DNA of 64,000 nucleotides. It comes from Eledone cirrhosa. Lineage: Eukaryota. Shown here piece by piece: positions 4,011 through 52,560 of this stretch. The translations under genes were made by a program, and so were the position numbers. The stretch covers positions 30,938,001 through 31,002,000 of the forward strand of contig OZ024745.1 of assembly GCA_964016885.1 (NCBI GenBank), in the 5' to 3' direction. Position 1 is the first letter of the stretch. Each line of letters opens with the position of its first letter. The notes under the pieces were generated by a model, which worked only from the letters and a program-made list of their open reading frames with translations, was not told the DNA's origin and made no database searches.

Positions 4011-4200
4011 TAGGAACCAGTAAGACCCCGACAGCTGAGCTCAAGCCGTTTCGACAGCTAATTCTGAGAATTAGCCGTCGAAACGGCTTGAGCTCAGCTG
4101 TCGGGGTCTTACTGGTTCCTATTACCCACTCTACTACCTCAAGTATTGAGTACTTTGGTGCGTTATGGTCCACCTGGTTCCTTACCACATTTCCTTCGTT
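4011..4200 (+). mobile_element. Fold-back PLE-end insertion, family A (55-bp arms plus tail)
   Basis: Palindrome 4011-4121 centred at 4066, then an ~80-nt tail, with (TA)n on both sides. Contains a hammerhead 3' half (GAAACGGC...GCTGTC). Same family at 16441-16485, 17731-17842 and 50199-50395. Confidence 0.75.
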
Positions 4201-4217
4201 ATATATATATATATATA

Positions 4218-4417
4218 GGTAAGTTATTCTGGGTTGAATCGGAGGTAACCACAGTAAGTAAGGTACTCAATATACATAGCAGAGTATAAAAGTTTTAATA
4301 TAGATGAGATTCTACAGGACTAGAACTGTTGCATTCTTTAGAAATCATCATGATTCCTGATGATTTCTAAAGAATGAAACAGTTCTAGTCCTGTAGAATC
4401 TCATCTATATTAAAACT
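4218..4417. mobile_element. Fold-back PLE-end insertion with a complete hammerhead
   Basis: Palindrome 4291-4417 centred at 4354 with 2 mismatches. Tail 4218-4290. (TA)n on both flanks. Confidence 0.75.
4352..4400 (+). ncRNA. Type I hammerhead ribozyme
   Basis: Stem I GATTC/GAATC. Core CTGATGA at 4357. Stem II TTCT/AGAA. GAAA at 4376. Stem III ACAG/CTGT. Predicted cut after GUA at 4395. Confidence 0.85.
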
Positions 4418-4469
4418 ATATATATATATCTTATCCTTATTCGCCCACTTATTCCTCAGAGAGTTGAGA

Positions 4470-5190
4470 GGGTAGAGTCCTCAGACTGGATAGGACCTTC
4501 CAGAGGCAACCGTCTCCAATTGATCCTTTCAACAAACTCGTTGGAAGGTAGCACTTCCCTTTCCACCCTGATTTTTCTCTTCAGGTAAAATTTGCAAAAA
4601 TTAATCAAGGCTTCACCGCCGTAGAAAGTGCTTGCCTTCAATCCTTTTGAAGGTGTCCACCACACGACTTCATTCGCCATGGCCACCAGACAGATCTAAC
4701 CTCCCAGTCTTTCTTTGCTGAAGGAAGGCAGTGGAGCGATCTTCATGGGGGATTAAACTGATAGCTGGATCCGTTCTACACGTGACAGCAGATGTTACAC
4801 ATAAATTCACAAGTCAGCAATCCTTGGACACATGAGGAGTGCGTGTAGGACGGTTTCCTCGTCCTGCACACATCTCGGACGGACCTGATAGGCGGCATTT
4901 CCATGCCTGTAGATTTTTTCACGAACTAGTAAAGCTCCCTAGTAGCACTGCCAGGTCAGGGAATTTGTAATTTATGCATGAGCCCTGCGCCGTATGTCCT
5001 CCGGAAAAGTGTGGCTAACTGATTTCCGTCGACGCCCAAGAGACCGCCCCTCTCAAGAACGTAGTCACTTTTACTCACCACTAACCCTCTAGAGAACGCC
5101 AGCGTGGAGTTTCCACCGATCGCTCTGCCAAATTGGCTGAGGATTGTGAGCACTTGTGAGGATTGTGACATTTTAGTTTCTAGGCATTCC
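4470..5190 (-). mobile_element. L1/Tx1-like LINE ORF2 C-terminal remnant
   Basis: Minus-strand translation gives WQCY*GAL...CVQDEETVLHALLMCPRIADL (zf-RVT-type Cys/His motif) and MANEVVWWT...KRKIRVERE. Contains stops and frameshifts. Confidence 0.7.
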
Positions 5191-5228
5191 TTCTCGGACC
5201 CGAACTGCAGCTGTCATGGAGCTCCTGA

Positions 5229-5352
5229 TACTACTACTACTACTACTACTACTACTACTACTACTACTACTACTACTACTACCACCATCACCACCACCAC
5301 CACTACTACTACTACTACTACTACTACTACTACTACTACTACTACTACTACA
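5229..5352. repeat. (ACT)n/(ACC)n trinucleotide microsatellite
   Basis: Read directly. Confidence 0.95.
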
Positions 5353-5423
5353 TGTATCTCCAACGAAAGATGCTGCCATCCATTTCACATCAGTTTATTT
5401 ATGTTTTTTCTCTTAATCGTCAG

Positions 5424-5537
5424 ACTAAGTTGGAGACGGATCCTAGAGCGGTATGGAGAGCTTATGGTAACCAAGGTAACGTTTGGATAAAAGCACGTCT
5501 ATCAATTCCGATAAACCTCGCCAAAACCGGATATAGG
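5424..5537 (+). CDS. Penultimate coding exon of a MAM-domain protein gene
   Basis: Acceptor ttttttctcttaatcgtcag and donor AGG|gtaagt. 114 bp, phase 0/0. Encodes TKLETDPRAVWRAYGNQGNVWIKARLSIPINLAKTGYR, matching the MAM W...G.QG..W..A motif. Confidence 0.85.
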
Positions 5538-49840: not shown

Positions 49841-50198
49841 TATATATATATATATATATATATATATATATATATATATATATATATATAATATTAAGGA
49901 TACTAATATACATATACATATATATATATATATATATATATATATATATATATATATATATATATATATATATATATATACATATATATATATACATATA
50001 TATATATACATATACATATATATATATATATACATATATATATATATATACATATATATATATACATATATACATATATATATATATACATATATATATA
50101 TACATATATATACATATATATATATATATACATATATATATATATATATATATATATATATATATATATATATATATATATATATATATACACATATA

Positions 50199-50395
50199 TA
50201 ACGAAGGAAATGTGGTAAGGAACCAAGTGGACCATAACGCACCAAAGTACTCAATACTTAGGGTAGTAGAGTGGGTAATAGGAACAAGTAAGACCCCGAC
50301 GGCTGAGCTCAAGCCGTTTCGACGGCTAATTCTGGACGCCAGAATTAGCCGTCGAAACGGCTTGAGCTCAGCCGTCGGGGTCTTACTTGTTCCTA
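50199..50395 (-). mobile_element. Family A fold-back insertion
   Basis: Reverse-oriented homologue of 4011-4200. Palindrome ~50279-50395. Confidence 0.78.
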
Positions 50396-50417
50396 TATAC
50401 ATATATATATATATATA

Positions 50418-50726
50418 TAAGAACAAAAGATGGTTAAAGGAGTTCCATGTATTTTATTATGCGCATTTCGAAAACAAATATCATCATGCAATAATATTTG
50501 TGTTTTCATCAGATAAAACAGGAGGACATGACATGAAGGCTAAAAAACACTTGTGGATAGTTCAGTTTTAAATCAACATATCAATGCGCATAATAAAATA
50601 CATGGAACTCCTTTAACCATATTTTGTTCTTATATATTATGTATACTCCAGTCCCACAAACTGTAGAGTGCTTCTTATCCGATATCTGCATTGCTTTATT
50701 GTACTACAATAAAACTCACCTCCCAC
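50418..50726. mobile_element. Family C fold-back insertion (minus arm with hammerhead, short plus arm with tail)
   Basis: Core at 50506-50512(-). Inversion junction near 50583. Tail 50635-50726. Confidence 0.8.
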
Positions 50727-51169
50727 ATATATATATATATATATACATATATATATATATATATATATATATATATATATATATATATATATATATATAT
50801 ATATATATATATATATATATATATATATATATATATATATATATATATATGTATATATATATATATACATATATATACATATATATATATATATATATAC
50901 ATATATATACATATATATATATATATATATATATATATATATATATATATATATATATATGTATATATATATATATATATATGTATATATATGTATATAT
51001 ATATATATACATATATATATATATATATATATATATATATATATATATATATATATATATATATATATATATATATATATATATATATATATATATATAT
51101 ATATATATATATATATATATATATATATATTTATATATATATATATACATATATATATATATATATACA

Positions 51170-51871
51170 TTATTTACGTATCGAGAGAGAGAGAAAAAAA
51201 GGGAACATCAGATTCTCCACGCACTGGGATATTGTCGGAAGGGCTGCACCGTACAACTTCAAGAGGAAATGCGATCTTTGCCTCATGGAGCTCTACCACA
51301 TCATAACTGCACCCCACGAGCTCATCAACATCAGAGCTGAAACAGCGATAAGTTGTACACATCGCTTAAAAATATCCTTCTTCAGATGGGTTAATGATGA
51401 GGAGTGAAACCGTGCACCGGATCTCCCTGCAACAAGTCTTAACACCCCGGCGGGCAGGCGCTGCAAAATAACACCCAGGAAACTATCCTTGTATACCAGA
51501 CCCAGCATAAAACGACTCAGACAAACAGATGCAGCAAAAAAATACTCTCAAAATAAGCGTTGATTACATGCGTATCGACAATGGTAAGGTTGCAACCTCA
51601 ACTCGTAGCGGATAAAAAGTTTGTCCGGGAAAGACTGCCCTAGCACCGGCCAGAGTTACCTCCCTTGACCTGCTGCAAAATCAAAACAAGCTATTTTTGC
51701 GAGCAATGAACCTTGACGTAGATTTAACCCAAAAAATTCTTTCCGAGCAATGTAAGGAACACTTTTGATTATTTATGCCCTTGAGAACCCCAACTGGGCG
51801 AAACGTACGTAGGTGCTGTTTTAAATAAACATGTTTTAACGGTCTATTCTCCGATTTCTTATTTTCCCACG
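51170..51871 (+). mobile_element. 5'-truncated PLE (Naiad-like GIY-YIG C-terminus), 3' UTR and hammerhead
   Basis: [34 protein letters not shown]...[14 protein letters not shown]. Flanked by (TA)n. Confidence 0.75.
51777..51816 (+). ncRNA. Minimal variant hammerhead (U3-A8)
   Basis: Core TTGAGAA at 51781. Stem II CCC/GGG. GAAA at 51800. Palindromic stem III ACGTACGT. Predicted cut after GUA at 51811. Short bulged stem I GCCC/GGTGC. Confidence 0.7.
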
Positions 51872-52117
51872 TATATATATATATATATATATATATATAT
51901 ATATATATATATATATATATATATATATATATATATATATTTTATTATGAGAAGTATATATTTTGATTATGAGAATATTTATATATATATATATATATAT
52001 ATATATATATATATATATATATATATATATATATATATATATATACATATATATATATATATATATATATATATATATATATATATATATGAATATATAT
52101 ATAAATATATATATATA

Positions 52118-52560
52118 TAATATTATTCAAAATATTAACAAATGAAAAATATTCTCATAATCAAAATATATACTTTATTATATATATTTCAAAGGTACTG
52201 TGTTGTTTTTTTCAGTACGTCCTCATCAGACAAAATATATGATTTGATATATGACATACCGCTACGGGTCTTGATTATACAATTCCAGTATTGGCCAATA
52301 CTGGAATTGTATAATCAAGACCGTAGCGGTATGTCATATATCAAATTATATATTTTGTCTGATGAGGACGTACTGAAAAAAACAACACAGTACCTTTGAA
52401 ATATATATAATAAAGTATATATTTTGATTATGAGAATATTTTTCATTTGTTAATATTTTGAATAATATTAAAAACTCCGGGAAAACAACTGTTGAGTGCT
52501 TCTAATCTATTGTAAAATTGTATTCATTGAGTAATCAACGAACCATACTAATCTTTGGTC
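52118..52560 (+). mobile_element. Fold-back PLE-end insertion with ~175-bp arms plus tail
   Basis: Palindrome 52118-52470 centred at 52294/52295. Tail with GAGTGC at 52494. (TA)n flanks. Confidence 0.82.
52349..52419 (+). ncRNA. Type I hammerhead ribozyme (minus-strand twin at ~52169-52239)
   Basis: Stem I TATATTTTGT/ATAAAGTATA with 2 G-U pairs. CTGATGA at 52359. Stem II GTACTG/CAGTAC. GAAA at 52398. Stem III ATATATAT. Predicted cut after 52409. Confidence 0.82.

Follow-up and report, generated by a model that had tools for sequence, protein, structure and literature searches.

The 64,000-nt stretch of the Eledone cirrhosa genome that we analysed (contig OZ024745.1 of assembly GCA_964016885.1, positions 30,938,001 to 31,002,000; hereafter the window) belongs to a 3.0-Gb assembly, is rich in (TA)n and carries inserts of several families (A to G) in which two inverted arms stand head to head and only one of them continues into a tail. 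Judged by sequence features, these inserts appear to be (TA)n-targeting Penelope-like elements (PLEs), with families A and C leading into open reading frames (ORFs) that carry the marks of the Hydra clade. We consider it probable that the pairs of one tailed and one tail-less (bare) arm are made by routine twin priming on one RNA, with the two cDNAs joined at their 3' ends. An earlier note on this DNA had listed nine such inserts, and a palindrome scan together with a survey of (TA)n segments found all nine to be (TA)n-bounded inverted repeats with an extension of 74-139 nt on one side only, the insert at 9251-9547 being the weakest example. The tail lies on the left in some window inserts and on the right in others. 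Below, S1 denotes the outer end at the tail end and S2 the outer end at the tail start.

The pairing of ends is nearly absolute. Using three exact gap patterns for one family-A subfamily with arms 20-140 nt apart, we counted 4,929 pairs, of which 4,730 (96%) combine a tailed with a bare end, 176 are tailed on both sides and 23 bare on both; an independent choice of ends predicts 2,462, 1,310 and 1,157, respectively. Inspection of 8 of the 176 doubly tailed pairs revealed seven with one truly bare side and an imperfect TA run, and one tandem that ends bare. At the first 30 family-A loci anchored on a bare end, the far end was an intact tailed arm in 26 and a partial tail in one, two arms were lone and one locus was unresolved; none was bare on both sides. 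Family C behaves similarly, with 22 of 27 head-to-head rows tailed on one side and bare on the other, none bare on both and five tailed on both. Two of these five (L134 and L156) represent one locus, whose inner tail enters the ORF and whose element ends bare; the tail of L160 also enters the ORF, and L149 and L150 are probably separate insertions with long TA runs between them. By eye, family F shows like pairing. In a regional survey of segments between TA runs, covering the window and its surroundings (464 kb in all), 95 of 335 segments held an inverted repeat and 50 of these were anchored at a TA run; 34 extend by 29-156 nt on the other side, four are symmetric and 12 that extend by at least 293 nt were left unclassified. 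TA-bounded inverted repeats are thus one-sided in 34 of 38 cases, four of the 34 being weak simple-repeat cases. The families are large, with 15,959 exact genome-wide matches to a family-A 18-mer, 24,220 to a family-C 19-mer and 1,568 to a family-F 20-mer. Bare ends of family A number 7,504, about half of the 18-mer matches, and the 2,573 matches to the family-C 'bare' pattern were left out of the counts because that pattern picks up a tailed subfamily as well.

Both outer ends are fixed, each being a short TA word that continues into (TA)n. The earlier note had proposed that arm end-points be plotted for each family; they proved to be fixed rather than random in 70 family-A copies, in family C and in raw reads, and the family-A tail measures 80 nt in 60 of the 70 copies. 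The raw reads are Illumina restriction-site-associated DNA (RAD) reads from three other samples, in which (TA)n loose ends were found at S2 in 2,862, 2,502 and 2,626 reads and at S1 in 6,027, 6,810 and 8,046 reads. That the tail-less arms of families A and C stop at one place, as had been claimed, is borne out. The internal site had been described as TA-like; S2 does lie at a TA word, but not any TA word will do, as others within the tail are rarely used and S2 keeps a near-fixed distance from a conserved hairpin. The flanking (TA)n next to both ends may pre-exist or be partly added by a telomerase-related reverse transcriptase (RT).

The junctions between arms fall into 59 distinct types in 70 family-A copies, some recurring up to three times, and mostly show 0-1 nt of overlap (range 0-6 nt), some with short filler. 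The inversion point had been said to vary, and it does scatter by a few nucleotides, but it clusters at one hot spot. Opposite-strand joints from this hot spot are supported by raw reads for 9 of the 15 joints listed, many from a single read start; RAD reads terminate at AATT within the hot spot, so read depth there was left unused. Among joints listed for short-read contigs, 10 of 15 connect the family-C bare-arm end with the tail or with a point just before it, and such contigs span two window junctions without mismatch, but with less than 31 nt on a side. Poly(A/T) runs stand at the head-to-head junctions of L071 and L147, which suggests that untemplated nucleotides were added to the 3' ends of the cDNAs; in L147 the long arm starts just past the upstream S1.

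The arms of an insert are not nested within each other, and they share variants. Of the 70 family-A palindromes, 16 have a bare arm that exceeds the tailed one by at least 10 nt and 3 show the reverse (p=0.004), and inverted arms consisting of the tail alone were seen in families A, C and F and at window position 27783. Because a snap-back copy must lie within its template arm, these arms are not explained by folding back, and the description of the inserts as fold-back palindromes in the earlier note was not upheld. A two-state site in family A agrees between the arms in 59 of 61 palindromes (52+7; Fisher p=1.4e-7). For 23 family-C pairs, including a duplicate and two doubtful pairs, the mean distance is 1.87 within inserts and 6.24 between them; for nine family-C pairs spanning 1.2-5.2 kb, a permutation test found that only 2 of the 362,880 possible pairings of arms, the true one included, match as well as the true pairing. 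Private mismatches between the arms of one insert nevertheless persist. The two arms of an insert therefore come from one source locus or subfamily.

Arms of both kinds tend to stop at an initiator-like site. In family A, the arm end lies 52-62 nt upstream of S2 for 60 of 70 bare and for 50 of 70 tailed arms, under a gap limit that selects short inserts yet permits arms of 140 nt, and 66 of the 100 listed arms that reach position -58 stop within ~6 nt of it (hand count). In 10 of 12 short family-C inserts an arm ends at -159 to -162. Family-F arms stop at an initiator (Inr)-like TCACT, with a TATA-like box ~30 nt upstream in all three long copies. At 28 of 89 stops, a G stands in front of the stop in place of the T or C of the genome, which is the pattern expected from a cap. 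Penelope transcription is reported to begin inside the pseudo-long terminal repeat (pLTR; PMC2377424), and the clustered stops, though a matter of sequence, make it likely that the hot spot is the 5' end of the RNA. In two copies (L057 and L059; G000:C1 at ~25.03 and 27.01 Mb) partial tandems have their internal joints at this hot spot, likely through template jumps at the RNA end, which would explain how the pLTR is regenerated.

Just downstream of S2, tails of 8 of 19 family representatives contain a hairpin of the form RCTC-stem-loop-stem-bulge-GAGY, which begins 2-14 nt after S2 and whose inner stems differ. The 19 representatives are 34 rows less 15 (11 repeat family copies and four weak cases). 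Control arms gave 0 of 19, reversed tails 1 of 19, and shuffled tails a mean of 0.28 and a maximum of 3. The hairpin may position the element protein. In the PMC8557442 supplement, the record just before Hydra-1_Obim carries, by eye, the same hairpin downstream of a hammerhead; it is one of six motif matches in the part searched, the other five being in unrelated contexts. Minimum-energy folds of arms and tails were uninformative.

Several features identify the inserts as PLEs, as had been proposed: ORF motifs, the (TA)n target, preferred as such by families A and C, and a hammerhead. In the long copies L057, L059 and L156 the tail continues into the 5' untranslated region (UTR) and an ORF, which makes it the beginning of the next unit, an arrangement known from other PLEs. 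The family-C ORF of L156 has RT motifs (YRDDG) followed by an endonuclease-like region, with a frameshift near its end; it carries LRWI and DKT motifs in place of the DKG type, a CxCX5C linker, and CxxC and CxH near the end, with no CCHH seen by eye. Family A has LRWR and DKT, and its endonuclease end shows CxxC, with no CxCX5C linker seen. Pfam and PDB searches of the family-C ORF gave no significant match; its layout, a single ORF with RT before a C-terminal GIY-YIG-like endonuclease, was assigned by motifs and by by-eye likeness to Hydra-1_Obim in the portion of the PMC8557442 supplement that holds it. For families B, D, E, F and G, the PLE label is taken only from the architecture, the hammerhead core (B, D and F) and the tail hairpin (B and F). 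Pattern search and inspection placed a hammerhead core upstream of the bare end in B, C, D and F, with stems also in B, C and F and the core only in D; family A has a core of the U3-A8 variant, a type already described in the relevant passage of PMC4209133. The pLTRs of B, C, F and, as the variant, A would thus contain a putative ribozyme. Among the best 150 rows of an Rfam scan there was no hammerhead, the matches listed being microsatellite-driven microRNAs only, and the 70 family-A copies gave no arm-end signal at the hammerhead cleavage site. Upstream of the family-A S2, the U3-A8 hammerhead of L012, L018, L172, L175, L178 and L181 has a long stem II loop that holds a putative promoter and start site; because the putative start lies in this loop, a short transcript would include just the 3' half of this ribozyme.

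Twin priming on one RNA would proceed as follows. The element protein, a dimer by analogy with the system of PMC11167929, would dock on the tail hairpin and nick both strands of the (TA)n tract, whereupon one strand would be primed at S1 and the other at S2. Both cDNAs would extend toward the 5' end of the RNA, the S1 cDNA running after the S2 cDNA and often stalling before it has reached as far, and the two 3' ends would be joined via microhomology and then filled in. The abundant palindromes of 150-450 nt would derive from an S1/S2 signal near the 5' end of a transcript starting inside the pLTR, and long inserts from the 3' copy of the same signal. We infer priming rather than cutting because RT starts at both tail boundaries in vitro (PMC11167929). 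The proposal in the earlier note of two priming events at two fixed sites is supported by this precedent together with the pairing and the fixed ends.

A number of points weigh against this mechanism. Overlapping arms demand that the same RNA stretch be copied twice, putatively with strand displacement. The Poseidon results of PMC11167929 show no strand difference in start site and no primer-template homology, whereas TA words stand at S1 and S2 here. Arms of the same source fall short of proving one RNA molecule, as two transcripts of one locus or conversion between arms fit too, and the two-state site in family A is a CpG change and so may recur. Later asymmetric deletion at palindrome centres could mimic some of the non-nested arms, although it offers a poor escape because deletion would not favour one arm. 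The pairing rule has exceptions: of the 23 family-A pairs that are bare on both sides, eight were inspected and all look genuine; lone arms account for 2 of 30 anchored loci and are present in the window at 16430 and 17732; and 4 of 38 repeats in the regional survey are symmetric. The TATA-like box is weaker or imperfect in family A and none was found in family C, and the extra G at the stop is suggestive of a cap but can be supplied by the partner arm. Finally, the hairpin pattern, which was drafted after the tails had been viewed, was not found in 11 of 19 families, including D, E and G.

The overlap between arms would be accounted for without copying one RNA twice if two RNAs of one source locus were held in a functionally asymmetric complex, one being primed at S1 and the other at S2. 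Shared variants would still be expected if one locus dominates in a cell, and twin and dual priming are hard to separate from sequence (PMC2837659, in the passage on this point). However, dual priming needs an extra source of asymmetry to yield one end of each kind in 96% of pairs and gives no reason why the tailed arm should be the shorter one (16 versus 3), and we regard it as unlikely. More doubtful still is a self-primed fold-back (PMC3846280) that the endonuclease resolves at S2 on one arm (PMC8557442) and that later loses its centre by deletion. Identical arms and one-sided tails would follow naturally from it, and at many junctions the sequence forms the centre of a near-perfect hairpin. 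Against it, 16 of 70 copies have a bare arm that outreaches the tailed one, tail-only arms are common, and later deletions ought to strike both arms alike. Nor does it sit well with two ends that both meet (TA)n through TA words or with the RT starts at both tail boundaries in vitro.

A third possibility is that arms were made independently or symmetrically and then homogenised and trimmed by conversion or repair, or that palindromic units spread in the manner of miniature inverted-repeat transposable elements (MITEs). Conversion between inverted repeats is possible, there are junctions that occur up to three times among the 70 copies, and TA-centred secondary inverted duplications do occur; yet trimming would not halt at one fixed base in thousands of copies, 59 distinct junctions were found, private arm mismatches persist and arm concordance holds across kilobases, so this possibility appears very improbable. 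A MITE or other terminal inverted repeat element, with symmetric terminal repeats and a constant interior, was ruled out by the asymmetric ends and the 59 junctions in 70 copies. An origin as fold-back chimeras of sequencing or assembly is scarcely credible. Perfect palindromes beside (TA)n are prone to artefact, and the contigs across two window junctions have the short overhangs mentioned above. Against this, the fixed ends are family-specific, the arms have diverged (86-99%), fixed ends and opposite-strand joints appear in raw Illumina reads of three other samples, matching joints occur in short-read contigs, and the same architecture is in print for PLEs.

In L1 elements the internal priming site is variable. 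L1 twin priming resembles the route proposed here in that the second target strand primes internally and leaves an inverted piece head to head, but in the account given in PMC2837659 it is an alternative route whose products combine an inversion with a deletion, whereas here the internal site is fixed, its use near-obligatory and the arms usually overlapping. Indeed, inversion with deletion of the L1 type was not found, as most arms overlap and only the tail-only cases do not. The Hydra-clade PLEs, as described by Craig et al. (2021) in the relevant parts of PMC8557442, are alike in their C-terminal endonuclease, RW[K/I/R] and DKT motifs, CxCX5C linker, lack of CCHH, (TA)n target, hammerhead in the pLTR and inverted 5'-truncated copy, often with a tail at one end only; they differ in having tails of 30-40 nt, compared with 74-139 nt here, and strict pairing, same-source arms, a fixed 5' stop and a tail hairpin are not described for that clade in those parts. 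Poseidon PAc, in the main text of Frangieh et al. 2024 (PMC11167929), also has two RT start sites that bound the tail at the start of the next unit, nicking and extension of both target strands and a predicted dimer, but it belongs to another clade and inverted arms and pairing are untreated there. In Adineta vaga Penelope (Arkhipova et al. 2013, PMC3846280), inverted pLTRs likewise stand head to head with an optional tail on one arm and with TATA and an Inr-like TCACT in the pLTR; that paper ascribes them to self-priming on an antisense template, against which the non-nested arms here argue.

Inverted pLTRs, one-sided tails, (TA)n targeting and two start sites in vitro are thus already in print, and how the inverted repeats and tails of PLEs arise is called an open question in passages of PMC3846280, PMC8557442 and PMC11167929. 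In the open-access literature that we searched, neither the one-of-each rule nor a twin-priming model for PLEs was found, nor any mention of same-source arms, a fixed 5' stop or the tail hairpin. What thousands of young copies add is a near-absolute pairing rule and exact coordinates for S1, S2, the 5' stop and the hairpin, which discriminate between published models and account for a large group of short palindromes that might be annotated wrongly as MITEs or chimeras. If twin priming is correct, these elements, whose RT belongs to the group nearest telomerase, would obtain their second strand by synthesising a first strand twice. Tentatively, and with rather less confidence, we suggest that twin priming may be the normal route of the Hydra clade, perhaps of all endonuclease-bearing Penelope elements: a dimer docked on a clade-conserved tail hairpin would prime the two target strands at two fixed sites of one RNA, and the cDNAs would reach the capped 5' end and template each other. 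This would explain the tail, the inverted pLTR and, via template jumps at the 5' end, the partial tandems.

Within the window, family A is represented at 4013..4199 (+), with a bare inverted arm (4013-4065), a direct arm (4067-4119), an 80-nt tail (4120-4199) and (TA)n on both sides, and at 50201..50396 (-), where the tail of ~77 nt lies on the left (50201-50277) and the arms occupy 50278-50335 and 50339-50396. The family-B insert at 4218..4416 (-) carries a 74-nt tail (4218-4291) on its inverted arm and has its bare arm end at 4416 and a hammerhead core at 4357 (+). The candidate assigned to family G at 9251..9547 (-) has 47-nt arms (9386-9432 and 9505-9547), a 72-nt spacer and a one-sided 139-nt extension that is partly simple repeat. 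Family D (16565..17013, -) has a 133-nt tail, near-perfect 158-nt arms and a hammerhead core at 16945 (+), and an older insert of family E (17032..17245, -) has arms that are 86% alike and a 96-nt tail. Family F lies at 52120..52560 (+), with a 92-nt tail, a hammerhead core at 52359 and its junction at the initiator-like hot spot.

Family C also has inserts in the window. At 27783..29313 (+), an inverted arm of the tail plus 9 nt (27783-27890) is joined to a 1.4-kb bare arm with the endonuclease end of the ORF, and copies of this insert lie at 31230-32630 and 35504-37027 within a tandem segmental duplication. The insert at 48101..49839 (+) has a long bare inverted arm, a shorter tailed direct arm and an 89-nt tail, its outer arms being 99.8% alike; that at 50420..50726 (+) has a bare inverted arm (50420-50581) reaching the -161 hot spot, a tailed arm from ~-48 and a 96-nt tail (50631-50726). 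At 58035..58377 (no strand assigned), a TA-centred inverted duplication with its centre at ~58185 places two family-C bare ends tail to tail and is likely secondary rather than two independent insertion ends. The family-C ends cited in the earlier note are real, but four are not independent insertions: those at 29312 and 37028 belong to copies of a tandem triplication, and those at 58111 and 58265 are the arms of this one inverted duplication. The triplication spans 25968-37174 in units of 3.5-4 kb with 96-98% identity, holds the family-C insert and includes a fragment of another PLE (Pfam GIY-YIG domain at 26798-27313). Ordinary sequence has also been duplicated in inverted form, with (TA)n at the centre or the borders, at 58035-58377, in three symmetric repeats of the flanks and in one further repeat with a spacer, which suggests snap-back at self-complementary microsatellites, a process separate from insertion.

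Other PLE remains in the window include a lone bare arm (16430-16486) and a lone tailed arm (17732-17841), relatives of family A from different subfamilies, and the (TA)n-bounded 3' part of another Hydra-like element (51173-51871; endonuclease end and UTR), in which no inverted arm is visible. A decayed PLE-like fragment with a weak GIY-YIG match lies at 585-2300 (-). At ~14130-14220 (+), an exon-like stretch matches the last part of a MAM domain with E 1.6e-05, which falls short of the family cut-off; the inserts may sit in introns of a host gene. Minisatellite arrays occupy 20272-20964 (33 nt), 45041-46969 (55 nt), 53823-54279 (49 nt) and 59174-59707 (32 nt).

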